A stretch of DNA of 63,989 nucleotides, the filler included, from a bacterium (GTDB lineage: Bacteria > UBA9089 > CG2-30-40-21 > SBAY01), in the NCBI GenBank assembly GCA_040757115.1. It is 5 parts of 5 records of this genome, joined end to end, with 100 filler letters (N's around TTAATTAATTAA, not from the genome) between each part and the next. Parts side by side here need not be neighbours in the genome. Positions count along the whole stretch, not along the records: positions 1 to 26,595 come from JBFLYA010000030.1; 4 more parts are not named here. One strand, 5' to 3'. Position numbers and translations under genes: made by a program. Positions 2,630 to 39,863 of the stretch are shown piece after piece. Under the pieces are notes generated by a model. That model saw nothing but the letters and a program-made list of their open reading frames with translations, did not search any database and was not told where the DNA came from. How positions within the stretch are numbered: the stretch's first letter is position 1; each line of letters opens with the position of its first letter.

Positions 2630-5600
2630 ATGGATAAAATAGGTTCTGTATTAGTTATTGGTGGTGGTATTGGTGGGATGCAGGCATCACTTGATCTGGC
2701 AGATGCCGGCTTTAAAGTCTATCTGGTCGAAGATAAACCTGCCATTGGTGGCAAGATGTCTCAACTGGATAAAACCTTCCCGACCAATGATTGCTCGATG
2801 TGTATTATGGCGCCACGGCTGGTAGATGTGGCTGGAAATCTAAATATCGAACTTTTGACAACATCAGAGGTTGTTGGTCTGGAAGGACAACCGGGTAATT
2901 TCAAGGTTGAAGTCCGTAGAAAACCCAGATATGTAGATACATCAAAATGCACCGGCTGTGGTGATTGTGCCAAAAAATGTCCGGTAGAGATGCCAGATGA
3001 ATTTAATATGGGAATGAGCAATAGAAAGGCAATCTATAAACTCTATGCTCAGGCTGTTCCAGGTGCCTTTGCTATTGATAAAAGAGGGACTTCTCCCTGT
3101 AAGGCAAAATGTCCTGTAGGTATCAGTGTGCAGGGATATGTTGCCCTGATTGCTCAAGGTAAATACCAGGAAGCCCTTAACTTAATCCGTCAAAAAAATC
3201 CATTTCCTGGCATTTGCGGCAGGGTTTGTAACCATCCCTGTGAAACAGAATGTATGCGTGGTAAAGTAGATGAACCAATTGCTATCGCCAGTTTGAAGCG
3301 TTTTGTGGTTGATTATGAGTCAGAGGTTAGAGGACAGAGGACAGAATTTATTTTTTCCCGAGTCCCGAGTCCCGAGTCCCGAGTCCCGAGTAAAGTGGCT
3401 ATTATCGGCTCAGGTCCAGCAGGCTTGACTGCGGCTTATGACCTAACATTGGCTGGTTACCAGGTAACGGTATTTGAAAAACTGCCAGTGGCTGGTGGTA
3501 TGATGCGGGTTGGAATACCAGACTATCGATTACCATCTAAGATAATTCAGGCAGAAATCGACGCTATTCTCTCAGCTGGTGTAGAACTCAGGCTTAATAC
3601 CCCGGTAGAATCCCTTGACCAACTTAAAACAGAGGGTTTTGAAGCAATATTAATTGCCGTTGGTGCTCATATCAATAAAAAAATGGGTGTGCCAGGAGAA
3701 GAATTAGATGGTGTCCTGTCAGGAGTAGATTTTCTGCGTGATATAAATCTTGGGCAGAAGGTTAATCTGGGAAATAAAGTAGCCATAGTTGGTGGTGGCA
3801 ATGTGGCTATAGATGCCGCCAGAGTAGCAGTGCGGTTGGGTGTCCGAGAGGTTAGCATTATTTATCGACGCTCCCGCAATGAAATGCCAGCAGACCCACA
3901 TGAAATTATTGCCGCAGAGGAAGAAGGGATTAAGATTCATTTTCTCACTAACCCAACTAAGATTATCGGTAAGGATGGTAAGGTCGTGGCTGTGGAATGT
4001 ATTAAAATGGGACTGGGTGAACCAGATGAATCCGGAAGAAGACGGCCAGTGCCAATCCCTGATTCTGAATTTGTCATAGAGATTGATAATATTATCCCGG
4101 CTATAGGGCAAACCTCTGACCTTGAATTAGTAAAAAACCAGGTAAAAGCAACTAAGTGGGGAACAATTGAAGTTGACCCCGAAACCCTCGCTACTAATCA
4201 GGAAGGTGTTTTTGCTGGTGGAGATGTAGTCACGGGACCAGCCTTTGTGGTTGATGCTATTGCCGCTGGGCATATAGCGGCTGAGTCTATTTCAAGATAC
4301 TTGCAAGGTCAAGACCTTAAGGTAGATAGAAAAAAAACATCTGCTTCTGTAGTTAAAGAAGTCCCACTTGATAAGGTTAAGAAAACAGCTCGCCAGAGGA
4401 TGTCGACTCTAAGTATCGAAAAAAGGACTGCTAATTTTAACGAGGTTGAGTTGGGATTTACAGAGGAGCAGGCAAGGGCTGAGGCACAAAGATGTCTTTC
4501 CTGCGGTATCTGCTCGGAATGCTATGAATGCGAACAAGTCTGTCAGGCAAAGGCAATAAACCATCAAGAGGTAGAGTTCACCCAAAAGATAGAGGTTGGA
4601 GCGATTATTCTGGCGCCAGGTTTTGAAACTATTTCACCACAGGTGCGTGAAGAATACGGCTATGGCTATTACCCAAATGTCATTACCAGCCTGGAATTTG
4701 AACGATACCTGTCTGCCTCAGGACCTACTACTGGACATGTGCAGAGACCATCAGATGGCAATGAACCAAAAAAGGTAGCCTGGATACAATGTGTAGGCTC
4801 TCGCGATGAAGAACATAGATACTGTTCTTCAGTTTGCTGTATGTATGCTACGAAAGAGGCTATCATTGCTAAAGAACATTCCCCAGCACTTGAACCAACT
4901 ATATTCTTCATAGATGTGCGGGCTTATGGTAAAGGATTTGATTCATACTATGAACGGGCAAAAGAACAATATGGAGTCAAGTATGTGCGATGTATGGTCT
5001 CAACCGTCAAAGAACATCCAGTGACTAAAGACCTAATCATTCGCTATCTAAACTCCGCCAATGAGTTAGTGGAAGAAGAATTTGAGATGGTGGTGCTGTC
5101 TGTAGGTTTAAAACCTTCTGCTAAAACTTATGAACTATCAAAGAATCTTGGTGTAGAGCTAAATCAGTATCAATTTTGTGCCACCTCTACCTGGACACCA
5201 ATGGCTACTTCTCGTGAAGGCATCTATGTCTGTGGTGCGGTTAGTGAACCAAAGGATATTCCAGAAACGGTTATGCAGGCATCTGGGGCGGCTGGATGTG
5301 TAGGCGAATTACTTGCGGATGTCCGTGGTAGCCTGATGGCTAAGAAAGAATATCCGCCAGAGATAGATGTCAGCGGACTGCTGCCCAGAATTGGTGTTTT
5401 TGTCTGTCGATGTGGGATAAATATTGCTGGAGTAGTTAATGTGCCAGCAGTCGTTGAACAGGCTAAAACTCTGCCTAATGTAGTTTGTGTAGAGGAAAAG
5501 ATATATGTCTGCTCTCAGGATTCACAAGCTTTAATTCGCGATAAAATCAAAGAACATAATTTAAATCGGGTGGTGGTTGCCTCCTGCACCCCACGAACCC

Positions 5601-7240
5601 ATGAAAGGCTATTTCAAGATACAATTCGGACAGCAGGTTTAAATAAATATTTATTTGAGATGGCTAATATCCGTGACCAATGCAGTTGGGTGCATAGTTC
5701 AAACTATGAAGGGGCGACTGAGAAAGCCAAAAAACTGATAGCAATGGCTGTTGCTCGTGCATCGTTACTTGAACCACTATACTTAATCCCGATGGACATC
5801 ACCCGCAAAGGATTGGTCATTGGTGGTGGAGTATCTGGAATGGTATCTGCCCTCTCATTAGCCGAGCAAGGATTTGAGGTTGAACTTGTTGAAAGAGAAG
5901 CTGAGCTTGGTGGAAATGCAAGACATCTCTATTTCACCTTAGAAGGCGATAACCCACAAGTGTATCTTAAATCTGTGATAGAAAAGGTTACCGCGCATAA
6001 GTCGATTAAAATCCACCTGTCGAGTGAAATAACGAAGTTCTCAGGACATGTCGGGCATTTTAAATCTGAAATCCGAAATCCGAAATCCGAAATGACTATT
6101 GAACACGGCGTGGTGATTGTAGCCACAGGTGGTGTAGAACACCAACCAACAGAATATTTATACGGCGAGGACGAAAGAGTAATCACACAACTTGAATTAG
6201 AAAAGAGGTTAGCGAATCCCGAATCCCGAGCCCCGAGCCCCGAGTCCCGAGTCCCGAAGACCATCGTTATGATTCAATGTGTTGGTTCTCGCACCAGTGA
6301 ACGACCGTATTGCAGTCGGGTATGTTGTAGTCAGGCGATAAAAAATGCCTTGAAAATCAAAGAGATAAGTCCCAAAACACAGATTTATATTCTCTATCGA
6401 GACATAAGGACTTACGGGTTCCGTGAAGATTACTATCGCCAGGCACGAGAGGCGGGAGTAATCTTTATTCGATACGAAGAAGATGCAAAACCAAAGGTCA
6501 GAAGACAGAGGACAGATGAGAAAGGGGGAAACGGAGAAGGAGAGGAGACACGAGGCACTATACCTGAATTTTCAGCCATTAGCCATCAGCCTATTTTCCC
6601 GAGCCCCGAGCCCCGAGCCCCGAGCCCCGAGCCCCGAGCCCCGAGCCCCGAGTCCCGAGCCCCGAGCCCCGATTTTGAGTCAGAAATCCGAAATCCCCTG
6701 GAAGTAGAAGTTGTTGACCCGATAATGGGAGAGAAATTGGTTTTGAATCCGGATTTGGTGGTGCTGGCACCGGCTATTCTTTCAGACCCAGGAAATGAAA
6801 GTTTATCTCCATTGTTGAAGGTAACATTGAATGCCGAGCGATTTTTCCTTGAAGCGCATATGAAACTTCGGCCAGTAGATTTTGCTTCAGAGGGTATGTT
6901 TTTGTGTGGGCTGGCACATTCACCCAAGCTGATTGAAGAGTCCATCGCCCAGTCACAAGCCGCCGCTGGTCGAGCGGCTACTATCCTGGCAAAAGACCAC
7001 TTAGATGTAGGTGGAGTTGTTTCGGTTATTGACGCAAATAAATGCGTTGTCTGTCTAACCTGTATCCGTATGTGTCCGTATGATGTGCCGTTTATTAACG
7101 AAAAAGGCGCTGCAGAAATCGAAGCGGCTAAATGCCAGGGTTGTGGGATATGCGCCTCAGAATGCCCGGCTAAGGCTATCCAATTGATGCATTATAAAGA
7201 CAACCAAATACTGGCTAAAACAGAGGCATTATTTGTTTAA
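2630..7240 (+). CDS. hdrA: Large heterodisulfide reductase subunit A-like flavoprotein (HdrA/HdrL with GltD-like NAD(P)H module)
   Basis: GGGIGG..LDKTFPTNDCSMC N-terminus, duplicated HdrA modules (QCVGSR..YCSxVCC), GSGPAG and GGGNVA motifs, C-terminal 2x[4Fe-4S] ferredoxin. Confidence 0.92.
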   Translation: MDKIGSVLVIGGGIGGMQASLDLADAGFKVYLVEDKPAIGGKMSQLDKTFPTNDCSMCIMAPRLVDVAGNLNIELLTTSEVVGLEGQPGNFKVEVRRKPRYVDTSKCTGCGDCAKKCPVEMPDEFNMGMSNRKAIYKLYAQAVPGAFAIDKRGTSPCKAKCPVGISVQGYVALIAQGKYQEALNLIRQKNPFPGICGRVCNHPCETECMRGKVDEPIAIASLKRFVVDYESEVRGQRTEFIFSRVPSPESRVPSKVAIIGSGPAGLTAAYDLTLAGYQVTVFEKLPVAGGMMRVGIPDYRLPSKIIQAEIDAILSAGVELRLNTPVESLDQLKTEGFEAILIAVGAHINKKMGVPGEELDGVLSGVDFLRDINLGQKVNLGNKVAIVGGGNVAIDAARVAVRLGVREVSIIYRRSRNEMPADPHEIIAAEEEGIKIHFLTNPTKIIGKDGKVVAVECIKMGLGEPDESGRRRPVPIPDSEFVIEIDNIIPAIGQTSDLELVKNQVKATKWGTIEVDPETLATNQEGVFAGGDVVTGPAFVVDAIAAGHIAAESISRYLQGQDLKVDRKKTSASVVKEVPLDKVKKTARQRMSTLSIEKRTANFNEVELGFTEEQARAEAQRCLSCGICSECYECEQVCQAKAINHQEVEFTQKIEVGAIILAPGFETISPQVREEYGYGYYPNVITSLEFERYLSASGPTTGHVQRPSDGNEPKKVAWIQCVGSRDEEHRYCSSVCCMYATKEAIIAKEHSPALEPTIFFIDVRAYGKGFDSYYERAKEQYGVKYVRCMVSTVKEHPVTKDLIIRYLNSANELVEEEFEMVVLSVGLKPSAKTYELSKNLGVELNQYQFCATSTWTPMATSREGIYVCGAVSEPKDIPETVMQASGAAGCVGELLADVRGSLMAKKEYPPEIDVSGLLPRIGVFVCRCGINIAGVVNVPAVVEQAKTLPNVVCVEEKIYVCSQDSQALIRDKIKEHNLNRVVVASCTPRTHERLFQDTIRTAGLNKYLFEMANIRDQCSWVHSSNYEGATEKAKKLIAMAVARASLLEPLYLIPMDITRKGLVIGGGVSGMVSALSLAEQGFEVELVEREAELGGNARHLYFTLEGDNPQVYLKSVIEKVTAHKSIKIHLSSEITKFSGHVGHFKSEIRNPKSEMTIEHGVVIVATGGVEHQPTEYLYGEDERVITQLELEKRLANPESRAPSPESRVPKTIVMIQCVGSRTSERPYCSRVCCSQAIKNALKIKEISPKTQIYILYRDIRTYGFREDYYRQAREAGVIFIRYEEDAKPKVRRQRTDEKGGNGEGEETRGTIPEFSAISHQPIFPSPEPRAPSPEPRAPSPESRAPSPDFESEIRNPLEVEVVDPIMGEKLVLNPDLVVLAPAILSDPGNESLSPLLKVTLNAERFFLEAHMKLRPVDFASEGMFLCGLAHSPKLIEESIAQSQAAAGRAATILAKDHLDVGGVVSVIDANKCVVCLTCIRMCPYDVPFINEKGAAEIEAAKCQGCGICASECPAKAIQLMHYKDNQILAKTEALFV

Positions 7241-7347: not shown

Positions 7348-7932
7348 TCAGTTTAACATATCCAGTGGACTTTGTACTCCCATCCCACCCTTATTGATAA
7401 CATGTGTATAAATCATGGTCGTGGATACATCCTTATGACCGAGTAATTCTTGCACGGTGCGAATATCATATCCTTTCTCCAGCAGGTGTGTAGCAAAGCT
7501 ATGTCGAAATGTATGAGGGCTGACTGGTTTTGAAAGACCAACGGCACGAGCAGCACTATAGATTGCTCTTTGCAGCCCACTTTCATTGACATGATGCCGA
7601 TGCATCTTGTCACTACGCGGGTCTTTAGATATCTTCTTTGATGGGAAAACATATTGCCAACCCCATTCTTTACCTGCATTAGGATATTTCCGCTCTAACG
7701 CAAAAGGCAGATGTACCTCTCCAACACCATTCTTGAGGTCTTGTTCATGCAATGCCTTAACCCGTTTTAGATGTTCTGATAGCAATGGTTTTAAACTTTC
7801 CGGTAGCATAGTTACTCTATCCTTCATTCCTTTTCCATCTCGCACAATCACTTGATTCCGAGCAAAATCAATATCCTTAACCCGCAAACGAATACATTCC
7901 ATCAATCGTAGTCCACAGCCGTAAATAAGTTT
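7348..7932 (-). pseudogene. intI: Integron integrase, N-terminally truncated
   Basis: [10 protein letters not shown], integron-specific [24 protein letters not shown] insert, [23 protein letters not shown]; upstream part replaced by an element starting at 7934. Confidence 0.9.
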
Positions 7933-7933
7933 C

Positions 7934-8119
7934 CACCTGTGCAATTAGAAATAAAAGGATAATTGATTAAACAGATTACATTTTTTATTGTAAGCGGATT
8001 AAACGGATTGAGCGGATTTTTTTTATTTCTTTTTCCGCTAAATCCGTTAAATCCGCTTACTAAATCCACCCGCTTACTATTAAAAATCTGCTTCCTTAAT
8101 TTTCTACCTGCACAGGTCG
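7934..8119. mobile_element. MITE-like element (CCACCTGTGCAATTAG ... CTACCTGCACAGGTCG) with inverted 9-mer arms
   Basis: Imperfect terminal IRs; related end CTAATCGCACAGGTGG at 45544-45559. Confidence 0.55.
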
Positions 8120-9541: not shown

Positions 9542-9743
9542 ATATGAAATAATTGTCTATTGGAGCGAGGAAGATGAGGCATTTATTGCTGAGGTACCTG
9601 AATTGCCGGGTTGTATGGCAGATGGCGAGACATATCAAAGAGCCATTTCAAACGCTGAGATTATTATTCAGGAGTGGATTGAGACTGCAAAAGAATTAGG
9701 GCGATTAATTCCACAACCTAAAGGTCGATTAGTATATGCCTAA
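9531..9743 (+). CDS. hicB: HicB-family antitoxin
   Basis: AEVPELPGCMADGET..IPQPKGR. Confidence 0.88.
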   Translation: MLDKYEIIVYWSEEDEAFIAEVPELPGCMADGETYQRAISNAEIIIQEWIETAKELGRLIPQPKGRLVYA

Positions 9744-9869
9744 CAATTCGTTACAGTTGACGGCGGGGGACTGTGCCGTGGTCAAAGTTTTGTGGTCTCT
9801 CAAAGTTTTATCTTGCTATCAAACTTTTGTGGTAATTCTCCCCGCCGCACCTGAACTTTATCGTTAGAA
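9738..9869 (+). repeat. attC
   Basis: GCCTAAC...GTTAGAA. Confidence 0.9.
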
Positions 9870-10105
9870 AACATACAGAGGAACATCCAAGATTGACAAA
9901 GTATCCAATCTGATGAATGGACGGGAGAAAAAACATAAAGGTCTCTACCGGGGTTCAATCCTTGAAAACTGAATAGTTCTTATAAGTTTACTGAAATGAG
10001 ATAGTTGGGCAGGATAGAAGAAAGAAAGAGAAAAAACGGCGAAGAAGTGAAAAAATCGGTGAAGGATAAGAGCCGCTAACAAAAATATTGGGAGGTTGAT
10101 TTCAA

Positions 10106-10345
10106 ATGGTTCAGGTTAGTGTAGATGAAATAAAACAAGATATATCGGTTTATCTTCCGTGTGTAGAAGTTGGAGAGACAGTTGTTATTATGAAGGAAGG
10201 TAAACCTCTGGCAGAATTCAAACCTGTTACTTCGACTTCTAAACGGCTACGACCCTTTGGATTATGCAGTGGAGAATTTATTGTGCCAAATGACTTTGAT
10301 GCTCCATTGCCAGAAAGTATCATTCAGGAGTTTGAAGGACAATGA
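10106..10345 (+). CDS. Phd/YefM-like antitoxin
   Basis: GETVVI..GKPLAE..RPFGL..VPNDFDAPLP. Confidence 0.8.
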   Translation: MVQVSVDEIKQDISVYLPCVEVGETVVIMKEGKPLAEFKPVTSTSKRLRPFGLCSGEFIVPNDFDAPLPESIIQEFEGQ

Positions 10346-10740
10346 AACTACTTTTGGATACCCATATCTTTCTCTGGTTCATTAGCGGGGACAAACGATT
10401 ACCAGAAGGTATGCGAGATACCATTCGTGATCCTAATAACGAAGTCTACTTGAGTGTTGTGTCGCTATGGGAAGCGATCGTTAAATACCAGATAGGTAAA
10501 CTTTCCTTGCCTCAACCACCAAATGTCTATTTACCAATCCAACGCCAAAAACACCAAATAGATAGTTTATCTCTGGATGAAGCCAGTGTGTCTCAACTTG
10601 CTAATCTTGCTAAAATTCACCATGACCCATTTGATCGTATGCTGATTTGTCAAGCAATGGAACACGGTTTAACAATTGTTAGAGTAGATGATACCATTTG
10701 TAATTATTCTGTTTCTGTTCTAAACCGCATCTTAAAGTAG
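10342..10740 (+). CDS. vapC: VapC/PIN toxin
   Basis: LLLDTHIFLW, SLWE, HHDPFDRMLICQA. Confidence 0.9.
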   Translation: MKLLLDTHIFLWFISGDKRLPEGMRDTIRDPNNEVYLSVVSLWEAIVKYQIGKLSLPQPPNVYLPIQRQKHQIDSLSLDEASVSQLANLAKIHHDPFDRMLICQAMEHGLTIVRVDDTICNYSVSVLNRILK

Positions 10741-10903
10741 ACTTAAATCTGATTTTGATGATGTTTTGCTTATGAATTTGGGTGTTATCTGGTTTCTGGA
10801 TAACATCCCAAATGGGGAGATATGAAGGGCAAACCATGAATGTGGAATGCACAATAATTCGGTGAGGCAGAGGAAAAGGAAAAGACAGCGAATCAAAGCT
10901 TTT

Positions 10904-11035
10904 GTCTAACCCTGCATTGCAGTTGACGGCGGGGGACTCTGCCGTGGTCAAAGTTTTGTGGTCTCTCAAAGTTTTATCTTGCTATCAAACTTTTGTGGTA
11001 ATTCTCCCCGCCGCACCTGAACTTTATCGTTAAGC
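10904..11035 (+). repeat. attC
   Basis: GTCTAAC...GTTAAGC. Confidence 0.9.
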
Positions 11036-11098
11036 GGCACGCCCGAGGAGGGAGCAGATGAAAAAAATAGAAGAGATTGAGCAGATATTAAAAGATAA

Positions 11099-11266
11099 GG
11101 TAGGGAGTAGGGTCGGGTAGGGAGTAGGGTCGNNNNNNNNNNNNNNNNNNNNNNNNNNNNNNNNNNNNNNNNNNNNNNNNNNNNNNNNNNNNNNNNNNNN
11201 NNNNNNNNNNNNNNNNNNNNNNNNNNNNNNNNGGTAGGGAGTAGGGTCGGGTAGGGAGTAGGGTCG
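11099..11266 (+). repeat. G-rich 17-bp tandem repeat GGTAGGGAGTAGGGTCG spanning a scaffold gap
   Basis: Two units visible on each side of the N run. Confidence 0.8.
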
Positions 11267-11350
11267 CATCTTGAATTGTGAATTGGTATTCTGAAATAAG
11301 ATACTTTAGCCAGCAAGGAGAAAAGAAAAAAGACGGCAGTGTGCAGCTTT

Positions 11351-11486
11351 TTCTAACCATTCGCTGCACCTGACTGCGAGGGGCTGTGGCGTGATTGAAA
11401 TAGTTTTGTGCTTTATCAAAGTTTTAACCTAGTTATAAAGTTTAGTGGTAATTTCCCCTCGCAGCAGGTGAGCTCAATCGTTAGCC
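11351..11486 (+). repeat. attC
   Basis: TTCTAAC...GTTAGCC. Confidence 0.9.
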
Positions 11487-11572
11487 GGATACCAACTTAC
11501 TATTTATGCTTAAGAAGAAAACTGGACTATGCTATCACAGAATTTGAACTTGTTGATTGAATGAGGTGGACG

Positions 11573-11782
11573 ATGAATGCTATAGAATTTCAAACCACAG
11601 TCAAGAACAATATCATTGAGATTCCTCACAGATACCTCAGCAATCTCACGAAGCGCGTGCGTGTGATCTTGCTGGTTGAAGGAAACAAACCTGCTGTGAA
11701 TTTCATTGATGAATTACTTGCACATCCTGTGCAAGTAAAAGGTTTTCGTTCTTTAACGAGAGAAGAAGTCTATGCCAGATAA
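11573..11782 (+). CDS. Putative antitoxin upstream of PIN toxin
   Basis: MNAIEFQTTVKNNIIEIP..LTREEVYAR; overlaps PIN gene. Confidence 0.7.
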   Translation: MNAIEFQTTVKNNIIEIPHRYLSNLTKRVRVILLVEGNKPAVNFIDELLAHPVQVKGFRSLTREEVYAR

Positions 11783-12200
11783 CGAACGCACAACTTGCTT
11801 CATTGATACGAATATCTGGCTATATGCCTTTATCGAAGGGGATGACTCAACCAAATCGGGAATAGCACGCGCGCTGATTCAAGAAACGGCACCTATGCTT
11901 AGTACACAGGTGATCAACGAAGTATGTGTCAACTTGCTGAAGCAAGCCAACTTTACCGAAGAACAAGTATGCCAACTCATCGAGTCGTTCTATGAGAAAT
12001 ACGTCGTTACTGAGTTAAACAAGTCAGTGCTATTGACTGCGTCGCAACTTCGCCAGCAGTATTCCTTGTCCTTTTGGGACAGCACGATTATAGCAAGTGC
12101 ACTCAGTGTGGGTGTTCCCATTCTATATTCCGAAGACTTGCAAGAGGGATTAATTATTGAAAGGCGACTTAAGGTGCTCAATCCATTCGGACAGAGATAG
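11772..12200 (+). CDS. PIN-domain toxin
   Basis: FIDTNIWLY, STQVINE, SFWDSTII, LYSEDLQ. Confidence 0.88.
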   Translation: MPDNERTTCFIDTNIWLYAFIEGDDSTKSGIARALIQETAPMLSTQVINEVCVNLLKQANFTEEQVCQLIESFYEKYVVTELNKSVLLTASQLRQQYSLSFWDSTIIASALSVGVPILYSEDLQEGLIIERRLKVLNPFGQR

Positions 12201-12292
12201 TTGGAGATATTTTACGGTCAAACCGTGAATGTGGAATGCACAATAATTTGGTGAGGCAGAGGAAAAGGAAAAGACAGCGAATCAAAGCTTTT

Positions 12293-12424
12293 GTCTAACC
12301 CTGCGTTGCAGTTGACGGCGGGGGACTGTGCCGTGGTCAGAGTTTTGTGGTCTCTCAAAGTTTTATCTTGCTATCAAACTTTTGTGGTAATTCTCCCCGC
12401 CGCACCTGAACTTTATCGTTAGAC
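12293..12424 (+). repeat. attC
   Basis: GTCTAAC...GTTAGAC. Confidence 0.9.
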
Positions 12425-12497
12425 ATAAGGTGGAGCGTATTATCGCGAATATCAAATCGAGATATCCACATTCCATAGAAATGAAAGGGAAAGGTCA

Positions 12498-12782
12498 ATG
12501 CATATCATTACTCGAAAACGGTTGAATGAATTTGCAGAGAAACATCCTGATGCCAAGTTGGTTCTTCAACATTGGTATGGTTTGATGAAATCGGGACGGT
12601 TTCGTTCGTTTCCAGAATTGCGTGCAGTCTTTCAGGACGCTGACCAGATAGGAAAATTGACCGTTTTTAATATTGGCCGCAAAGTGCGTCTAATTGCAGC
12701 TATCCATTACAATCGACAGAAGGTTTACATTCGTGCTGTATTAACGCACGACGAGTATAATAAAGGCTTATGGAAGGAGTAA
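12498..12782 (+). CDS. higB: HigB-family toxin
   Basis: MHIITRKRLNEF..TVFNIG..RLIAAIHY..LTHDEY. Confidence 0.88.
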   Translation: MHIITRKRLNEFAEKHPDAKLVLQHWYGLMKSGRFRSFPELRAVFQDADQIGKLTVFNIGRKVRLIAAIHYNRQKVYIRAVLTHDEYNKGLWKE

Positions 12783-12785
12783 CCC

Positions 12786-13013
12786 ATGATGGTAGAAGTA
12801 CAAACAGCGGAACGCGTCTGGCCAACACTCGCACCAGTCGTATTTGCTCCGCATACGGAGAGTGAATATCAACGACTTGTGGCTTTACTTGATGCTTTGA
12901 TTGATGTGGTAGGTGAGAATGAAAGTCATCCCCTATCCTCGTTGATGGAAGTGATTGGTGTGCTGATTGAAAAGTATGAGGACGAACATGTCCCAGAACT
13001 GACAGAGATATAG
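12786..13013 (+). CDS. Short HigA-like antitoxin (N-terminal domain only)
   Basis: EYQRLVALLDALID..HPLSSLMEVIGVLIEKYE; no HTH follows. Confidence 0.75.
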   Translation: MMVEVQTAERVWPTLAPVVFAPHTESEYQRLVALLDALIDVVGENESHPLSSLMEVIGVLIEKYEDEHVPELTEI

Positions 13014-13046
13014 CCATTGAATCATTTGTAGAGAATAGCAAGAGAA

Positions 13047-13178
13047 TTCTAACCAGTCGTTGCATCGGACGGCGGGGGAGCTAACCACTTCTCAAAGTTT
13101 TGTGGTTGACCAAAGTTTTGTTGTGTATATAAAGTTTAGTGGCAATTCTCCCCGCCGCCGCTGAACTCAGCGTTAGAC
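13047..13178 (+). repeat. attC
   Basis: TTCTAAC...GTTAGAC. Confidence 0.88.
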
Positions 13179-13220
13179 AAATAGAATATTAACACTCAAG
13201 ATGAATTGGTAAAATGAAAT

Positions 13221-13517
13221 ATGTTATTATTTGAGTGGGATCCAAGAAAAGCAATTAAGAATATAAATGTCCATGGTATATCTTTTGATGAAGCCAGCAC
13301 AACTTTTAGCGATACACTATCATTAACAATCTATGATCCGTTACATTCTGAGCAAGAAGACAGATTTATTTTAATTGGGAATTCACTTAAACATCGTGTG
13401 TTAGTAACTGTTCATACAGAAAGAGGGGATAAAATTAGAATAATAAGCTCGAGAAAGGCAACAGAAAATGAAAGGAGACAATATGAAGAGAATGCAAAAA
13501 GATCGGGATATGCTTGA
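13221..13517 (+). CDS. brnT: BrnT-family toxin
   Basis: FEWDPRK..HGISFDEA..EDRF..IRIISSRKATENER. Confidence 0.9.
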   Translation: MLLFEWDPRKAIKNINVHGISFDEASTTFSDTLSLTIYDPLHSEQEDRFILIGNSLKHRVLVTVHTERGDKIRIISSRKATENERRQYEENAKRSGYA

Positions 13518-13692
13518 AGAATATGATTTCAGCAAAGGTATTCAGGGAAAATACGTAAAAAAATACTGCGAAGGGACAAATGTTGTAGTTATTGATACTG
13601 ATGTTATCAAATTTTTCCCTGACCATGAATCTGTAAATCAAGCATTAAGATCATTAATTGATATTATTAAGAGACAAAAACAATATGCTTAA
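13483..13692 (+). CDS. BrnA-like antitoxin
   Basis: DMLEEYDFSKGIQGKY..FPDHESVNQALR. Confidence 0.8.
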   Translation: MKRMQKDRDMLEEYDFSKGIQGKYVKKYCEGTNVVVIDTDVIKFFPDHESVNQALRSLIDIIKRQKQYA

Positions 13693-13818
13693 TCACTCGC
13701 TGCACCTGACTACGGGGGGCTGTGCCGTAATTAGAGTTTTGTGGTATCTCAAGCTTTTATCTTGTTTACAAAGTTTGGTGGCAATTCTCCCTGCCGCCGC
13801 TGAACTCAATTGGTAGAA
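13687..13818 (+). repeat. attC, degenerate cores
   Basis: Resident-family body with GCTTAAT and GGTAGAA ends. Confidence 0.8.
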
Positions 13819-13828
13819 CTAAAATATT

Positions 13829-14350
13829 ATGGGATACAATCTGTATCTGGTAAAAAAAGAAAATTGGTTTGATAAGGAGAATGTATTTACCCAAACCGAA
13901 TGGGAAGATATTCAAAAATATCAGATATCGAATTGGCTTTATTTTGATGAAGGGACAATTACAATTAAAAATCCTTCGAAAGAACAAGTAATAGATTTTG
14001 TCAAGATGGCAAAAAGATATAATTGGTTCGTTCAAGGCGACGATGGCGAAAAATATTCAGAAGATGGCTCGCCTATTTATGAGAAACCTAAAAAATCTGG
14101 ACTATTTGGGGGAATTAGATATCTTATATCAGAGTTATTGGCAAAAAAGAAAATCGAACATTCAATGAAAAGTGTAACTTGCCCTTTTAAAGTCGGAGAT
14201 AAAGTAAAAACGACACACAGAACGGGTGGTGTTGTTATTGACATAGATCCAAAAGCAAATCATGGCTTAGGCAGTATCAAGGTAAAGTTTCCTGATGGAG
14301 TTGTCTTAGGGGGAACTTTTATTGCTCACGGTTTTGAAAAAGAGTTCTAA
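13829..14350 (+). CDS. Hypothetical cassette protein
   Basis: ORF fills the cassette; stop codon in attC. Confidence 0.7.
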   Translation: MGYNLYLVKKENWFDKENVFTQTEWEDIQKYQISNWLYFDEGTITIKNPSKEQVIDFVKMAKRYNWFVQGDDGEKYSEDGSPIYEKPKKSGLFGGIRYLISELLAKKKIEHSMKSVTCPFKVGDKVKTTHRTGGVVIDIDPKANHGLGSIKVKFPDGVVLGGTFIAHGFEKEF

Positions 14351-14405
14351 CAACTCGCTGCAGCCGACATAGCTTACGCTCGGTGGCTGAGCTCGGTCGT
14401 TAGGT
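14345..14405 (+). repeat. attC (short foreign type, 61 bp)
   Basis: TTCTAAC..GCAGCCGAC..CGGTGGCTGAGC..GTTAGGT. Confidence 0.85.
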
Positions 14406-14426
14406 CTGAAAAATTGGAGGATAGTC

Positions 14427-14642
14427 ATGAATACATTGACATATGATAATTTAATTGACACTGTAAAATCATTATCAATTGAAGAAAAAGAGGAACTTAA
14501 ATTTTTGATGGAGAGGTATCTTATAGAGGAACGGAGAGAAGAAATCTATAAAAATTATCAAAATAGCTTGAAAGAAGCTGAAAAAGGGAAGTTAGAATTT
14601 TCAAGTAATGTCCGCAAACTAAGGAAAATGGTAGAAAAGTGA
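14427..14642 (+). CDS. Putative antitoxin
   Basis: Small acidic ORF overlapping a RelE-like gene. Confidence 0.7.
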   Translation: MNTLTYDNLIDTVKSLSIEEKEELKFLMERYLIEERREEIYKNYQNSLKEAEKGKLEFSSNVRKLRKMVEK

Positions 14643-14908
14643 TAGAAATCAGTTTTAGTTCTTCTTTTAAAAGAGCGTATAAGAAAAGGATTAAATGGTC
14701 TGATGAGTTAGAACGGAAATTTTGGGAAAGAGTAGAGATGTTTACAAAAGCTCCTTTTGATAGAATTTTGAAGACACACAAGTTATCAGGAAGACTACAA
14801 GAATTATGGAGTTTTAGTATTGAATACGATGTCCGGGTAATATTTTATTTTGCTGATAGGAATAGGGTGGTATTTGTAGATATAGGAAAACATGATGAAG
14901 TTTATTGA
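14639..14908 (+). CDS. RelE/YafQ-superfamily toxin
   Basis: SSFKRAYKK..LKTHKLSG..WSFSIEYDVRVIF..DIGKHDEVY. Confidence 0.85.
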   Translation: MIEISFSSSFKRAYKKRIKWSDELERKFWERVEMFTKAPFDRILKTHKLSGRLQELWSFSIEYDVRVIFYFADRNRVVFVDIGKHDEVY

Positions 14909-15040
14909 CCTAACAATTCGTTGCAGCGGACGGCGGGGGACTGTGCTGTAATTGAGAGTTTTGTAGTATATCAATAGGTAATCGTGCTTACAAAGTTTGG
15001 TGGCAATTCTCCCTGCCGCCGCTGAACTCAATTGTTAGGC
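14908..15040 (+). repeat. attC
   Basis: ACCTAAC...GTTAGGC. Confidence 0.9.
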
Positions 15041-15057
15041 AGATAGGAGACAACGGG

Positions 15058-15312
15058 ATGATACCCATACAATGTAAGAAATGCGGACATATTCAAGATG
15101 CTGGGAGTACCTTGTCACCCAATGACACCTGTGAACGATGCGGTACACCCATCTACGGACCCAGAGCTCACAATCCAACAACTATGGCAATTCTCGCCGT
15201 AGTAACAGTGATTGGTGCCGCGATACTGGGTATGCCCAAGAACTTCCTGCTCATAGTCGGTATCTTGGCTGCCTTCTTGGTGATCAACGCAGTCATAAGG
15301 CGAAAGAGGTGA
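15058..15312 (+). CDS. Zinc-ribbon + 2TM small protein
   Basis: CKKCGH..CERCG followed by hydrophobic helices. Confidence 0.6.
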   Translation: MIPIQCKKCGHIQDAGSTLSPNDTCERCGTPIYGPRAHNPTTMAILAVVTVIGAAILGMPKNFLLIVGILAAFLVINAVIRRKR

Positions 15313-15315
15313 GAC

Positions 15316-15672
15316 ATGGGGACAGTCGTATTTCTCGTCGCCATTATAGTCGGTGCTGTGATATCCGCAATCTTTTACTGGCTTTTCCCCTTTGAGCCGC
15401 CTATTCAGAAGTGCGAAACATGCTTTCACCAAATGCAGGTCCTTAAGTTCACAGGCAGAGGTGGAGTGATGCTTTTGCGGGAAGAAATGGTCTCCGGCAT
15501 CGGCTATGCGGAACAATGTTGGGAGTGTGGCAGGGTGTATTGTGCCGAGTGCTATCCTTCGCGTCCGCGGAACACTTGTGTTTGCGGACGGGGGAGGGAC
15601 GCTGTGCGTCATATCGGAGGCACAGTCTATCGAGGTTCATTACGGCTTGTGAAAGTCCGATACATCAATTAA
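15316..15672 (+). CDS. TM-anchored Cys-rich protein
   Basis: N-terminal TM; CETC, CWECGRVYCAEC, CVC. Confidence 0.6.
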   Translation: MGTVVFLVAIIVGAVISAIFYWLFPFEPPIQKCETCFHQMQVLKFTGRGGVMLLREEMVSGIGYAEQCWECGRVYCAECYPSRPRNTCVCGRGRDAVRHIGGTVYRGSLRLVKVRYIN

Positions 15673-15761
15673 AGGAGATATTAGGGTCAAACCGTGAATG
15701 TGGAATGCACAATAATTTGGTGAGGCAGAGGAAAAGGAAAAGACAGCGAATCAAAGCTTTT

Positions 15762-15893
15762 GTCTAACCCTGCGTTGCAGTTGACGGCGGGGGACTGTGC
15801 CGTGATTGAAAGTTTTATAGTATCTCAAAGGTTAATCGTGCGGACAAAGTTTGGTGGTAATCCTCTCCGCCACCGCTGAACTCAGTGTTAGAC
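15762..15893 (+). repeat. attC
   Basis: GTCTAAC...GTTAGAC. Confidence 0.9.
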
Positions 15894-15948
15894 TAAAAGA
15901 GATTAAACCACGAACGACCCACAAGTGGGTACCCCGGAAGAACACGAA

Positions 15949-16054
15949 GTGAAATTTGATGAAATATCTAATAAAGTTAGCAAATATTAAAGTTGGCTTG
16001 TTGATAAATTTCAATGTAGAAAGTTTGAAAAAAGGCATAAAAAGATTTGTCTTG
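15949..16054 (+). pseudogene. Internally deleted GxxExxY-family gene
   Basis: MKFDEISNKV joined out of frame to KLANIKVGLLINFNVESLKKGIKRFVL; flanked by CACGAA / CTTCGTG inverted arms. Confidence 0.7.
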
Positions 16055-16443
16055 TCCAATCTTCGTGACCTTCGTGCTCTTCGTGATGAATAGTTACATA
16101 AATCTTTTTATTATCTCTAAAATATAAAAGTATTATACCAGACCTTGATTATGTAGAAATAAGAAGAAAAGACGGCGAAGTGGAATTTTTACTTAATCAA
16201 TCGCTGATCCTGACCGTAATACGTCAGTTATTTGGGGGAATGAACATTAACCTGCGGAGGACAGAGCAATGAAAATAGTAGGCAAGTAGGTAGTAGGGAA
16301 GTAGGAAAGGGATAAAGGATGTGCACGGTATTCCTCTTCTGGGGGCAATGTCTCCCCCTTTCCTACTTTCCTACTCTCCTACTTCCTACTTTCAGGAGAA
16401 TCCCCCATTTCAGTGACGCATTACTCCTGACCGATTTTTTCAC

Positions 16444-16472
16444 TTGACAACAAATATCAACAATGATACTAT
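16444..16472 (+). promoter_or_regulatory. Sigma70 promoter of second hicAB
   Basis: TTGACA-17 bp-TACTAT, 6 nt before the ATG. Confidence 0.65.
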
Positions 16473-16478
16473 ATTTAC

Positions 16479-16739
16479 ATGGCAAAGGTTGAAGAAATTA
16501 TTACCCGTATGAAGCGGAATCCTAACGATATCCGATTCAGTGAGTTGTGCAAGGTATGTAATTACTACTTTGGAAAATCTCGTCAGAGTAGTAGTAGTCA
16601 CCGAGTATATAAAACTCCATGGCAAGGTAATCCACGGATTAACATACAAAATAATAAAGGAAAAGCTAAAACATACCAAATAAAACAGGTCATTTTAGCT
16701 ATTGAAAGATTGGAGGTAGAACATGGCCATAAAAAATGA
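16479..16739 (+). CDS. HicA-like toxin
   Basis: NPNDIRFSEL..SSHRVYKTPWQGNPRINIQ..KAKTYQIKQV. Confidence 0.8.
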   Translation: MAKVEEIITRMKRNPNDIRFSELCKVCNYYFGKSRQSSSSHRVYKTPWQGNPRINIQNNKGKAKTYQIKQVILAIERLEVEHGHKK

Positions 16740-17139
16740 TCGTTATACCTATCGAGTAACATGGTCAGAGGATGATAATGAATATGTTGGTTTATGTATA
16801 GAGTTTCCAGGTTTGAGTTGGCTTGCTAAAACTTCTGAAGATGCCTTAAAAGGGATACAGAGATTAGTTGCTGATGTTATAAAAGATATGTTTGAAAATG
16901 GTGAAACTATACCTAATGCAATATCCTGTAAACAGTATAGTGGTAAATTTATGGTACGCGTCCCACCTGAAGTTCATCGGAAGCTTGCAATTAAGGCGGC
17001 AGAATCAGGAGTCAGTTTAAATCGGTTTGCCAGTTCAAAATTAAGTCAAGGAGTTGAATTGAAATCAGACTTTGGTTATGGAATACAGGAAAAATTAGGA
17101 AGGAAGGAAAAAAGACGGCGAAGTGGAATTTTTACTTAA
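16723..17139 (+). CDS. hicB: HicB antitoxin (RHH), C-terminus extended into attC tail
   Basis: EFPGLSW..YSGKFMVRVPPEVHRKLA..GVSLN. Confidence 0.85.
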   Translation: MAIKNDRYTYRVTWSEDDNEYVGLCIEFPGLSWLAKTSEDALKGIQRLVADVIKDMFENGETIPNAISCKQYSGKFMVRVPPEVHRKLAIKAAESGVSLNRFASSKLSQGVELKSDFGYGIQEKLGRKEKRRRSGIFT

Positions 17140-17266
17140 TCAGTCGTTGCAGCGGACGGCGAGGGACTGTGCCGTGATTGAAAGTTTTGTAGTATCTCAA
17201 GGGATAATCATGCGGACAAAGTTTAGTGGCAATCCTCCCCGCCGCACCTGAACTTTATCGTTAGAC
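17134..17266 (+). repeat. attC
   Basis: ACTTAAT...GTTAGAC. Confidence 0.85.
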
Positions 17267-17306
17267 GTATACCACTGGAAGAAAAATGATCTTTAGGAGG
17301 GCTTAA

Positions 17307-18029: not shown

Positions 18030-18041
18030 GGGAGGTTATTA

Positions 18042-18752: not shown

Positions 18753-18836
18753 GATTTGAGTTATATGGCGTCTAACAAAAAAATGAACCAGACGAGGATA
18801 GTGACGGGGTCGGATAGTGCCGGGGTCAGACCTCGA

Positions 18837-19089
18837 GTGAGTGTTGACAAGAAAAACTACATTTTGTTTGACGATGAACAAATTTTAGTGTATGTATAAC
18901 TCTATTAAAATAAAGCAATTAAGAAATTAGGTATAAACTTACATGGAGTATTCACTAATTCATATCATAAGATTTTGATCATAAATGAAAAAGTGGAGTA
19001 TCTTTACATCTATATTCAATCTATTGTTTTTCAATGGGTTATGCAATATTCATCAAATTATATAGATGAAAAGATTTGTCAACACTCAC
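18837..19089. mobile_element. MITE with GTGAGTGTTGACAA terminal IRs, flanked by TCGA
   Basis: Perfect IR at 18833-18850 and 19076-19093; AT-rich non-coding interior. Confidence 0.75.
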
Positions 19090-25599: not shown

Positions 25600-25807
25600 C
25601 TAAAGCTCCTTTTGTGAAATCAGCAAATCTGTGTAATCCGCAGAGAACATAAATTAACAAATCAAAAATTTATTAGAATACAAAATGTTGGGGGAAAAGA
25701 CACCTAATGTGCAGGGACAAATTACAATCTCTAAAGAATATCGTAAGCGCTCAGGTGTAAGTAAGGGAAAATGGAAAAGTAGGGAAAAAGGGGAAAATAT
25801 AACTCAA

Positions 25808-26470
25808 AGAGATAAGTCCCCAAACACAAATTTATATTCTGTATCGAGACATAAGGACTTACGGCTTCCGTGAAGATTACTATCGTCAAGCACGCGAGGC
25901 GGGAGTAATCTTTATTCGATACGAAGAAGATGCAAAACCAAAGGTCAGAAGACAGAGGACAGACAACAGACCACAGACAACAGACCACAGAGGACAGATG
26001 ACTGATGACAGAAGTCAGATGTCAGGAGTTAGATTCTTTCCGAGTCCCGAATCCCGAGTCCCGAACCCCGAGTCCCGAGCCCCGAGCCCCGATTTTGAGT
26101 CAGAAATCGAAAATCTCCTGGAAGTAGAAGTTGTTGACCCGATAATGGGAGAGAAATTGGTTTTGAATCCGAATTTGGTGGTGCTGGCACCGGCTATTCT
26201 TTCAGACCCAGGAAATGAAAGTTTATCTCCATTGTTGAAAAGGTAACATTGAATGCCGAGCGATTTTTCCTTGAAGCGCATATGAAACTTCGGCCGGTAG
26301 ATTTTGCTTCAGAGGGTATGTTTTTATGTGGGCTGGCACATTCACCCAGGCTGATTGAAGAGTCCATCGCCCAGTCACAAGCCGCCGCTGGTCGAGCGGC
26401 TACTATCCTTGCAAAAGACCACTTAGATGTAGGTGGAGTTGTTTCGGTTATTGACGGAAATAAATGCGTT
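25808..26470 (+). pseudogene. hdrA: Duplicated, frameshifted 3' fragment of hdrA
   Basis: Near-identical to ~6361-7048 except for single-base indels and a different repeat insert. Confidence 0.9.
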
Positions 26471-26695
26471 ATCACCTATTTCGAACCGATAGTTATTCCC
26501 ACTTTTTTCCCTGGTCACTTGAACTGAAAGTCTAAGGAGTGGTTGTTCAGCCAGGAGACTTTGGGGTTAACTCCTTTGCTTTTAAGTTTCTCTTCNNNNN
26601 NNNNNNNNNNNNNNNNNNNNNNNNNNNNNNNNNNNNNNNTTAATTAATTAANNNNNNNNNNNNNNNNNNNNNNNNNNNNNNNNNNNNNNNNNNNN

Positions 26696-30486: not shown

Positions 30487-31074
30487 ACTATTAAACCTTT
30501 AGGATATAAAATTTCTTGTTTTATTATCCTTTTAATATTTTCTCTAACACCCATTTCATCGTATACGAACATACTTGAAGCAAATGGTTTGTCGTAAATA
30601 AGATTACTGATAATTCCTAAATTTACAGAACAGACTAAAGCATATAGAGTTAAAGATTAGGTCAAATGAAAATGCTCAACTATTGAGGAACAAGAGTATA
30701 ACCATTTATAAATAAAGTAGTTGTAATTCTTTGNNNNNNNNNNNNNNNNNNNNNNNNNNNNNNNNNNNNNNNNNNNNTTAATTAATTAANNNNNNNNNNN
30801 NNNNNNNNNNNNNNNNNNNNNNNNNNNNNNNNNATAATTAATTTTTTAATTTTATTTTCAACCCCCACCCCCCAATCTTGGGGGCTTTAATAAGGAATTA
30901 GGATTGTGGCATTCAAAATGACCAACAATATATATTATACGAGGACGATGAAAATAAAGGAAGGATGCGGGCGGGGATGCTGAAGTCGAACAACGCAGGC
31001 TAAAGCTTGCGGCTACCAGCCTTCCCGAGTCCCGAACCCCGAGTCCCGAGTCCCGATTTTCAGGAGAGAGACTA

Positions 31075-34787: not shown

Positions 34788-34968
34788 NNNNNNNNNNNNN
34801 NNNNNNNNNNNNNNNNNNNNNNNNNNNNNNNTTAATTAATTAANNNNNNNNNNNNNNNNNNNNNNNNNNNNNNNNNNNNNNNNNNNNTTTGAGAAATAAT
34901 CCCAAAGGCTAATCCGGCTACAAACCAGCGAACTACTTTCATCCTTTCTCACCTCCTTAAGAAAAAAG

Positions 34969-35533
34969 GTAACTATTCAGCCACAGATGGACACGGATGA
35001 AACACTAAAAATTCGGTGGTGTCTGAAAATAACTCTAATAGTGAAATCTATGCAGATTTGGTGTCCAAAAGGGATTTCCTCCAAAGAGCAAAATGCAAAA
35101 AGCAAATATAAAAATTACATATCAAAATGTAAAATTATCTCTTTCCTTTCAGCGTTAAAATACTTGAAGCAAAGATATTACCAAATTCCTCCAACTCTTT
35201 GAGAAATCCTGTTACTTCCTCTTTGAAATTTGATTTGTAATTTTGCATTTTGATATTTAATATTTGATATTTATTTGTTGTCTCCCTCAAATCCTATTTT
35301 GCAGAACCCTATACACTATTTTAACCTTTATGCTAGATTAAGACACCACTAAAAATTCATGAATCGTGTCCGGTATCCGTGTCCGTTTGTCCTTTGCCTT
35401 CTACCCTCTGCCCTCTACCCTCTGCTATTTATCCGTGCTAATCCGTGTTAATCAGCGGTTGAATAGTTATTTTATTTCTATATTTTCTCTGTTCCTCTGC
35501 GTCTGTGCGGTAAAGGACTACCTGAACGGTTAC
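34969..35533. mobile_element. Nested MITE cluster including a GGTGGTGTCT element at 35014-35350
   Basis: GTAACTATTCAG start, TGAATAGTTA and CTGAACGGTTAC ends; inner element near-identical to 39945-40300. Confidence 0.8.
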
Positions 35534-39109: not shown

Positions 39110-39863
39110 GTAACCATTCAGCCACAGAGGCACAGAGTTCACAGAGAATTAGAGAAATTAGCTACAAATGGACACGAATTAACCTCTGACATTCGATAAA
39201 TGTAGTGCGAACCTTATTGCTTTTTCATAAATAGGTTCCTCTTTTGGGGAGAGCGATAGCAAGAAGAACTTTAATGTAAATATCAAAATGCAAATATCAA
39301 AATTACAATGCAAAATGCAAAAATACTTGTAAATTAACAAAGTAGCTGGAGAATATTTTGATTTTTGATTTGTAATTTTACATTTTGATGTTTGATTTTT
39401 AATTTATTTTATGGTATTCCAGAAAAGTGGAAGTTAATTTTGCAAAAACCATTAGGTTCGCTTTCCTGCTTGCCAGAAGCGAGGCTAAAGCCTCGCACTA
39501 CAAATCTTTTTATTCGTGTTCATTCGTGGTTAGTAACTATTCAGCCACAGATGGACACGGATGAAACACTGAAAATTCGTAATCCGTGTCCGTTTTCCGT
39601 GTCCGTAATTAGGCTGAAGAGTTTTTCTCCTTTTGACTTTTATCTTCTATCCTTCTTGATTCTCTGCCAGTGGAGGAAATTTCCACCCCCTAACCCCCGC
39701 CAGCGGGGGACAACCCGCCTCTGCCCTCTGCCCTCTGCTCTCTGCCCTCTATCCTCTGCCCTCTGTATTTATCCGTGCTAATCCGTGTTAATCAGTGGCT
39801 GAATAGTTACCGTGGTTATATATTCCCTCTGTGTTCTCTGTGACTATATCCCTGAACGGTTAC
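39110..39863. mobile_element. Outer MITE (TSD AAAATTAT) with nested elements at 39217-39451 and 39533-39810
   Basis: TSD 39102-39109/39864-39871; inner TSD CGTGGTTA 39525-39532/39811-39818; TTA duplication 39214-39216/39452-39454. Confidence 0.9.

Follow-up and report, generated by a model that had tools for sequence, protein, structure and literature searches.

How tandem repeats with a unit of seven nucleotides can lie in frame inside a conserved enzyme gene, and where such repeats come from, is the question raised by the 63,989-nt stretch of DNA considered here (the window; five joined records, with positions counted along the whole). The gene in question, hdrL, is located on the record occupying positions 1 to 26,595 (JBFLYA010000030.1), and its host is an uncultured groundwater bacterium. 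A preliminary description of the window had noticed heptamer arrays written into an intact frame of 1536 amino acids, and this is confirmed by Tandem Repeats Finder (TRF) and by the sequence; the peptides quoted at that time are present in the translation. We consider it likely that repeats belonging to the genome's own repertoire supplied these tracts as passenger DNA, which is translated into disordered loops of a functioning enzyme.

The product is not the plain HdrA that it was first taken for. It is a fusion, presumably best named "HdrL-type", in which an NfnB/GltD-like module follows an HdrA-like N-terminal part and is itself followed by another HdrA-like module bearing a C-terminal ferredoxin domain. 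Pfam analysis identifies Pyr_redox_2, Fer4_20 and several 4Fe-4S (Fer4) families, the Rossmann domains being represented by Pyr_redox_2 in four stretches (E = 8.5e-62) together with NAD_binding_8. The C-terminal 527 residues match methanogen HdrA (5odc_A) in three stretches, ferredoxin domain included (E = 3.4e-87). The 8000 homologues are approximately 1465–1500 residues in length, the closest showing 76% identity, and several carry the source name "heterodisulfide reductase subunit A-like polyferredoxin." The cysteine columns do not vary in 15 aligned sequences. From homology the protein would be predicted to function as a heterodisulfide reductase-type flavoprotein; neither an HdrB nor an HdrC gene adjoins hdrL in the window.

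The arrays occupy four sites, the coordinates of which are collected in Table 1. TRF reports seven period-7 rows within the open reading frame (ORF), at the positions given in the preliminary description; a detector of our own, with a minimum array length of 21 nt, yields six arrays totaling 245 nt. In a codon-shuffle control (n = 500) the mean number of arrays was 0.008 and the maximum one, and with the same criterion no array of period 5, 6, 8, 9, or 10 was found in hdrL. The hdrL arrays are direct rather than inverted repeats. The window as a whole contains 28 arrays, of which only the six in hdrL are surely coding. Seven divided by three leaves a remainder of one, hence each added heptamer moves the frame by one position. 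For this same reason a heptamer array that lacks stops can be read through in any of the three frames, and the seven-residue repeat that it specifies is the same whichever frame is used. This makes heptamers unusually easy to tolerate within genes.

Genome-wide counts were obtained from the nearest genome (G001; 4.7 Mb, 770 contigs), which served as a proxy. A search of it with hdrL revealed, besides the orthologue, 21 places that match window positions 6492-6596, and others that match the CCCGAG array or site 1. Twenty of the 21 were fetched, and every one proved to be an element of approximately 250 nt with terminal inverted repeats beginning GTAACTATTCAGCCAC. The order of its parts is left arm (CACGGAT repeats spaced 10 nt apart), CAGAGGN array, variable cargo, TCAGCCW array, and right arm. 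Possessing terminal inverted repeats, small size, no ORF, and a high copy number, it is a miniature inverted-repeat transposable element (MITE); its right arm was matched at 40 of 40 scored places among 282 first-look candidates (copy number at least 40), with no matches in two other genomes of the Desantisbacteria clade. The interior of 18 of the 20 copies is 92-100% identical to window positions 6506-6596 over 38-88 of the 91 nt, and the remaining two match only the first 29-33 nt. This block of hdrL holds the last CAGAGGN units, GAAAsGGr octamers, a unique core, and a TCAGCCW array (6572-6591; TRF, TCAGCCA ×2.9). The arms, found in 20/20 copies, are not present in hdrL. The sequence comparison shows that 6506-6596 was imported from a dispersed MITE. 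Site 4 had been described as a mosaic of several repeat families; the families are indeed there, and this part of the mosaic is the copied interior of that MITE. The left arm, read from its sequence, has stops in all three frames, which would account for the survival of the interior alone, without arms, in the gene.

Two arrays outside hdrL had been cited as intergenic members of the same families, and both are real. That at 39718-39765 (CCTCTGC, the reverse complement of CAGAGGG) is not free-standing; it is part of a full MITE, the internal cargo of which is unlike the block in hdrL. The other, at 31023-31056, belongs to the CCCGAG family and lies in a cassette that ends 8 nt ahead of the ATG (31075) of a gene assigned by Pfam to the ATP:guanido phosphotransferases. 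In the nearest genome the pattern (CCCGARY)3 occurs 97 times, versus twice for the reversed control, in approximately 40 arrays on 32 contigs. Among the contexts examined, three kinds can be distinguished. The first is a leader cassette: its core is conserved, its unit variants come in a fixed order, and its CCCGATTTTCAGGAG tail lies immediately ahead of start codons; nine copies stand alone and three are embedded in a MITE, all with the same unit order. The second possesses a GGGGATTCTTTTATT leader. The third comprises coding copies: at least nine CCCGAG arrays lie in long open frames, 9/9 in the same sense, as are the 3/3 in the window hdrL. Three of the nine are in the hdrL orthologue and one each in an HdrL paralogue, PdxA (PF04166, E = 9e-111), and the rRNA adenine dimethylase RsmA (PF00398, E = 3e-61); the other three are in two large surface proteins and an open frame running off its contig.

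The surroundings of these arrays are also shared. A composite of CAGAGGN array, T-rich leader, CCCGAGY array, and CCCGATTTTGAR tail is found at hdrL site 4 as well as in PdxA and a single surface protein, and again, minus the tail, at hdrL site 1. The CCCGATTTTGAG tail of site 4d recurs in the nearest genome, likewise behind CCCGAG arrays, both in dispersed cassettes and in the PdxA insert. A T-rich leader and CCCGATTTTSAG tail, shared with the cassettes and with the PdxA and RsmA inserts, strongly imply that the CCCGAG arrays of hdrL, too, were imported. The HdrL paralogue (G001 contig C334, 1851-6332, minus strand; 1494 aa) has a CCCGAG array at just one of the sites, site 3, where its TTAGCGAAT lead-in is identical to that of the orthologue; this suggests exchange between the two genes at that site. 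Dispersal is not peculiar to this unit: TCAACTC, the site-3 unit of another Desantisbacteria genome, is found on at least 14 contigs of that genome, although here the reversed-pattern control is a rotation of the same repeat and hence uninformative.

The preliminary description placed insertions in four loops. To judge net gain, 120 homologues were aligned and the four segments between conserved anchors measured, the 110 distant sequences (under 65% identity) serving as the reference. Site 4 measures 73 residues versus a median of 13 (range 12-17), a net gain of 60; site 1 has 26 versus 19 (range 16-37; +7), and site 3 has 19 versus 14 (range 11-26; +5). These three sites are thus net insertions. 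At site 2, with 11 residues versus a median of 12, there is no net gain, and the heptamer array has overwritten a turn without lengthening it.

Two AlphaFold models based upon orthologue alignments were used to locate the tracts, one of residues 140-620 (mean predicted local distance difference test score [pLDDT] 83) and one of residues 1010-1536 (mean pLDDT 60.6). In the former, site 1 links the Fer4_20 domain, at its last helix, to the first strand of the Rossmann domain, as a coil at model residues 96-115 (pLDDT <50 at 97-111) preceded by helix 80-95 and followed by strand 116-120. In the latter, site 2 is a confident β-hairpin turn between strands 134-140 and 145-150 (pLDDT 81-90); site 3 is a coil at 187-201 (pLDDT <50 at 188-197) ahead of the conserved IVMIQCVGSR strand; and site 4 is a 64-residue coil at 284-347 (pLDDT <50 at 286-344) bordered by strands 280-283 and 348-354. 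Methanogen HdrA has an inserted ferredoxin domain at site 2, where the 5odc alignment has a gap between residues 235 and 319, and a six-residue turn at site 4. The tracts, which were expected to map to linkers, thus lie in coil or turn, and appear from the models to be disordered surface loops, linkers, or a turn of a working enzyme.

How such tracts evolve can be seen by comparison with the orthologue in the nearest genome, which specifies 1556 residues (94.4% nucleotide and 95.8% amino acid identity). The two genes differ in length at only two places. At site 1 the nearest genome has 11 CCCGAGY units versus 5 and a leader 6 nt shorter (net +36 nt), and at site 4 it has three additional octamers (+24 nt); both are multiples of three units and in frame. 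The core has a dN/dS (ratio of nonsynonymous to synonymous substitution rates) of 0.085 (1410 codons, dS 0.205), versus 0.80 for the inserts (126 codons, dS 0.092, dN 0.074), the latter a rough value that is derived from 28 differences in hard-to-align repeats. From this contrast the inserts behave as neutral passengers. At approximately 99% identity the lengths are fixed: in the 90% cluster of one relative, 8/8 full-length members have 1499 residues, with 4-6 substitutions and no indels, and within two further 90% clusters the sole differences are the start that was called or two substitutions. All five complete orthologous hdrL genes examined are open.

Nine proteins are closest to this one, at 68-76% identity; they come from assemblies that are either Candidatus Desantisbacteria or unclassified, and have low-complexity tracts at the same sites with unrelated sequences. 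Their site-4 lengths are 39, 68, 18, 25, 36, 13, 17, and 18 residues, one protein being truncated there, and the site-2 array is shared with the two closest relatives, in which it has decayed. At the DNA level, three other hdrL genes of the Desantisbacteria clade have 13 period-7 arrays in or at them, 12 of which are at the same four sites and the thirteenth at the stop codon. Among the units are CAGAAGT, CCCTCAT, CAGGGGT, AATGTCG, AAAATCC, GTCAGGG, GAACCCC, AAAGTTG, TCAACTC (17 copies), CGCATTC, AGTGAAA, and GTTAGGG. With 12 of 13 arrays at the same sites and the units differing, the sites are therefore clade-wide and the units lineage-specific.

Two sequences illustrate what happens where the frame is not kept. 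The window contains a pseudogene fragment of hdrL (Table 1), the flanks of which are approximately 97% identical to the intact gene. It has approximately 88 nt of CAGANNA heptamers in place of the MITE block, and its CCCGAG array is 23 nt shorter; it has gaps of +1, -5, -23, and +2 nt, none divisible by three, and a 2-nt frameshift. A search of the nearest genome with hdrL did not find a second match to the part copied in the pseudogene. Because that genome too has the MITE block, the import probably came first, and the fragment, formed later, has since been overwritten; it is also possible that the fragment is foreign. The other case is a large, Ig-like surface-protein gene of the nearest genome (contig C50, 890-3998, minus strand), in which the frame shifts exactly across a 63-nt CCCGAG array that can be read in both frames. 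Whether natural frameshifting, decay to a pseudogene, or faulty assembly lies behind it, the case shows the outcome of an array length that does not preserve frame. The earlier proposal that arrays are tolerated only in linkers and at frame-preserving lengths is supported by both sequences and by the predicted coil or turn positions.

The scheme that best accommodates these data is as follows. This lineage abounds in 7- to 10-nt tandem arrays, which would move as modules of a MITE, of a gene-leader cassette, and of inverted-array cassettes around small genes. Modules would have come into hdrL at a small number of permissive positions, the probable route being recombination, or template switching, where array units and native codons share short stretches. 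Once there, arrays would lengthen, shorten, and be replaced through slippage and further exchange, and selection would retain those versions that lie in a linker, turn, or loop, are free of stops, and keep the downstream frame, as in the three-unit steps. The inserted peptides appear to have no sequence-specific role.

Several points weigh against this explanation. All genome-wide counts come from G001, the hdrL of which is 94.4% identical to that of the window at the nucleotide level, and not from the window's own genome. The MITE interior in hdrL has neither arms nor a visible target duplication. Instead of repeated entry, the clade-wide use of the four sites could go back to a single ancient insertion at each, subsequently overwritten. 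GAACCCC, the site-4 unit of one relative, is found only in its hdrL (4/4 hits), so that not every array has a dispersed source, although that assembly is incomplete, at 2.0 Mb. The rule of frame-preserving steps is based on two events, the roughness of the insert dN/dS has been mentioned above, and translation of the tracts in HdrL is surmised from the open frame and from purifying selection elsewhere in the gene.

A purely local origin, in which each array arose in place by slippage of native codons with no transfer, is nevertheless unlikely. It draws on the confinement of GAACCCC to hdrL, on the decayed site-2 array which added no length, and above all on the leftmost site-4 array, which begins on conserved K-P-E-V codons in 6/6 Desantisbacteria-clade genes, with GTCAGRR-type units in five of the six; eight distant genes have the K-P-(K/E)-V codons with no array. 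The native codons CCA-GAG-GTC hold one CAGAGGT unit, which is the opening unit of the MITE array. By inference, native codons gave rise to this array, or seeded it, in the common ancestor, and the array may later have provided the homology for entry of the MITE interior. For 6506-6596 the local view is refuted by the 91-nt non-repetitive block shared with MITE copies, and it runs counter to the leader, tail, and unit-variant order that the CCCGAG arrays share with those elsewhere and to the composite found also in PdxA and another gene. Local slippage does contribute to the arrays alongside import: the preliminary description was correct in proposing import, for the MITE block outright and for the CCCGAG arrays by strong implication, and went too far in excluding slippage, given the K-P-E-V start and the three-unit differences in the nearest genome. 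Alternatively, the arrays might work by slip-strand switching, with HdrL alternately on and off in a population. Long, nearly perfect arrays of a unit not divisible by three would suit such a contingency locus, as would the surface-protein gene that is frameshifted exactly across its array; yet all complete orthologues are open, the two differences in the nearest genome preserve frame, with no frame-shifting polymorphism, and the three clusters have no indels, bearing in mind that consensus assemblies may hide minor variants. The same inserts are also present in the housekeeping genes PdxA and RsmA, and the core of HdrL is under strong constraint, so that we regard a switch as most improbable. 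A selected function, with the Pro/Ser/Glu/Arg-rich loops acting as flexible linkers, docking sites, or solubility tags, would be in keeping with the single orientation of the coding CCCGAG arrays and with the retention of inserts at the same sites across the clade. It is improbable in view of the insert dN/dS, of loops that are unstructured in the models, and of loop sequences and lengths that differ completely among relatives (site 4 from 13 to 73 residues, one close relative being at the ancestral length). The sequence derives from a metagenome assembly, and several members of one relative's cluster are partial proteins, yet mis-assembly of repeats is scarcely credible: G001 is an independent assembly with the same sites and in-frame differences, three more assemblies show arrays at those sites, and the eight full-length cluster members of identical length come from several sources.

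The preliminary description also proposed a dedicated repeat-depositing process. None is called for, since MITE mobility, recombination between arrays, slippage, and selection suffice. A candidate machinery that makes or copies heptamer arrays into DNA would be the Avd-like four-helix-bundle proteins of family PF05635, the "23S rRNA intervening-sequence protein." Matches to this family number 39 in the nearest genome (27 above the cut-off), and only 1 of 14 control genomes has any. At six of seven loci (L086-L092) an array stands upstream of the gene and the reverse complement of that array downstream, the seventh having no upstream sequence; the unit is different in each copy, two using CAGAGGN or CAGAGGG. 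PF05635 resembles Avd, the accessory protein of diversity-generating retroelements, according to PMC10053308. Set against this, the association is one of co-occurrence, only two reverse-transcriptase matches exist in G001, and MITE terminal repeats bracket the PF05635 gene at 0 of 8 loci, a complete MITE pair lying approximately 900 nt from the gene at L091 and two weak single hits (3 mismatches) elsewhere; among 40 window ORFs scanned there is no PF05635 gene. Repeat writing by such proteins is in our view very unlikely. Also quite unlikely is a broader version, in which heptamer arrays are insertable DNA found across phyla and the array-bracketed PF05635 genes are autonomous units whose arrays, along with the MITEs that hold such arrays, are copied into leaders and into the loop-coding portions of core genes; if true, the "repeat-depositing process" would be a protein-driven mechanism that remodels enzyme surfaces. 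One of the two reverse-transcriptase matches directly adjoins a weak PF05635 match on contig C189 of G001 (L095, approximately 1944-2506), the layout expected of a diversity-generating retroelement.

To our knowledge there is no agreement on the origin or role of heptameric repeats in bacteria, despite their having been known for decades. The cyanobacterial STRR heptameric repeats were reportedly described by Mazel in 1990. Further examples are the GGGNATC heptamers of Xanthomonas and Nostoc (PMC4692102) and the TAACTGA repeats of Beggiatoaceae and cyanobacteria (PMC4679880). According to these papers, heptameric repeats are over-represented in many bacteria, are mostly intergenic, and within coding sequence are under-represented (PMC4692102, PMC4679880); the possibility that they are read as a seven-residue peptide repeat is considered in the latter. 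The arrays described here resemble these simple sequence repeats (SSRs) in having 7-nt units in three or more copies, dispersed over many loci and often just upstream of starts, and in that the units are lineage-specific, several with G or C tracts. They differ in that six arrays are present in one conserved enzyme gene, at sites common to a candidate phylum, and in including part of a MITE.

Other known systems offer partial parallels. Rickettsia palindromic elements are MITE-type selfish DNA inserted in frame in protein-coding genes (Ogata et al. 2000, as cited in the review PMC10969869). The likeness lies in a small dispersed family with in-frame copies in unrelated housekeeping genes of G001, and in an added peptide that is compatible with the fold, at a surface loop or linker, in a gene which stays functional (here by selection on its core). 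By contrast, no complete palindromic element is present in hdrL, which contains 7-nt arrays and an arm-less MITE interior; slippage alters the length of the tracts, the sequences are unrelated, and the host is a free-living groundwater lineage. The element of G001 agrees with prokaryotic MITEs, as PMC10969869 presents them, in its size of approximately 250 nt, terminal inverted repeats, lack of coding capacity, and copy number; it differs in having modular cargo between two tandem arrays, with only the interior in hdrL. Phase-variable SSR contingency loci (PMC4692102) likewise have a tandem repeat in an ORF with a unit length that is not a multiple of three; unlike them, hdrL specifies a core enzyme, has several arrays per gene, and displays no frame-shifting polymorphism in the comparisons with G001 and within three 90% clusters. 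In the open-access literature, supplements aside, no description was found of in-frame heptamer arrays at conserved loop sites of an enzyme, nor any report of Desantisbacteria repeats or of a link between PF05635 and heptamers.

The tracts look like tolerated selfish DNA rather than new protein function. On this reading heptamer repeats and part of a MITE can enter coding sequence at a few permissive positions, the same ones being reused across a candidate phylum with units that differ by lineage; the tracts are near-neutral while the enzyme core is strongly constrained, and length changes keep the frame. This makes hdrL a natural system for asking how selfish repeats make disordered protein segments. 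There is also a consequence for annotation, in that what passes for a low-complexity "linker" in a protein of a metagenome assembly may be repeat DNA and not an evolved domain. The array-bracketed Avd-like genes provide a testable lead on the source of the arrays.

Table 1. Location of hdrL, its repeat tracts, and related elements in the window
Feature	Position	Strand	Basis and remarks
Intact HdrL-type gene	2630..7240	+	ORF list; 1536 aa, stop-free
Site 1a, CAGAGGN array	3319..3345	+	TRF 3321-3345, CAGAGGA ×3.6; own detector; reads E-V-R-G-Q-R-T-E
Site 1b, T-rich leader, then TCCCGAG ×5.1	3346..3391	+	TRF 3356-3391, 100% matches; reads SRVPSPESRVPS
Site 2, AAATCCG ×4.6	6057..6093	+	TRF 6062-6093; reads KSEIRNPKSE
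Site 3, CCCGARY ×6.4	6210..6257	+	TRF 6213-6257, CGAGTCC; reads NPESRAPSPESRVP
Site 4a, GTCAGAA/CAGAGGN array	6489..6516	+	TRF 6495-6516, AGGACAG ×3.1
Site 4b, MITE-interior block	6506..6596	+	Match to dispersed MITE copies in nearest genome
Site 4c, CCCGAGC ×10.7	6598..6672	+	TRF; reads PSPEPRAPSPEPRAPSPESRAPSP
Site 4d, tail CCCGATTTTGAG, then approximately two GAAATCC units	6667..6697	+	Sequence; conserved LEVEVV strand next
Pseudogene fragment of hdrL 6356-7050	25803..26473	+	blastn, tblastn, alignment, ORF list; 670 nt
"Family A" leader cassette	30990..31067	+	Units CCCGAGT-CCCGAAC-CCCGAGT-CCCGAGT, CCCGATTTTCAGGAG tail
Longer element, arms as in MITE	34966..35476	-	CAGAGGG array 35391-35425; different cargo
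Full MITE, 278 nt, both terminal inverted repeats	39533..39810	-	Inverted-repeat search, sequence

Directly downstream of hdrL is a truncated tyrosine recombinase of the Phage_integrase family (7348-7944, minus strand), followed by a series of small toxin-antitoxin genes (PIN, HigB, BrnT, and HicB; 9700-21600) set apart by a recurring 19-nt repeat at 9782, 10948, 12337, and 21516. The layout of recombinase and toxin-antitoxin genes with repeats between them resembles an integron-like cassette array. A full-length serpin gene (19277-20506; PF00079, E = 2.5e-126) is present in this bacterial window. Hairpin-like pairs of 9-nt arrays lie on either side of the hdrL region, at 2479-2546 and 7991-8057. 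Masked stretches of N are located at 11133-11232, 26596-26695, 30734-30833, 34788-34887, and 61284-61383 (one of 100 nt, four as pairs of 44 nt). Arrays with 8- to 10-nt units at 61391-61464 and their reverse complements at 63890-63973 bracket an FG-GAP repeat gene. Lastly, at 40839-41107 a 126-nt unit is repeated 2.1 times with 98% identity, and is itself made up of CTTTCCTA and AGTAGGA arrays in inverted arrangement.

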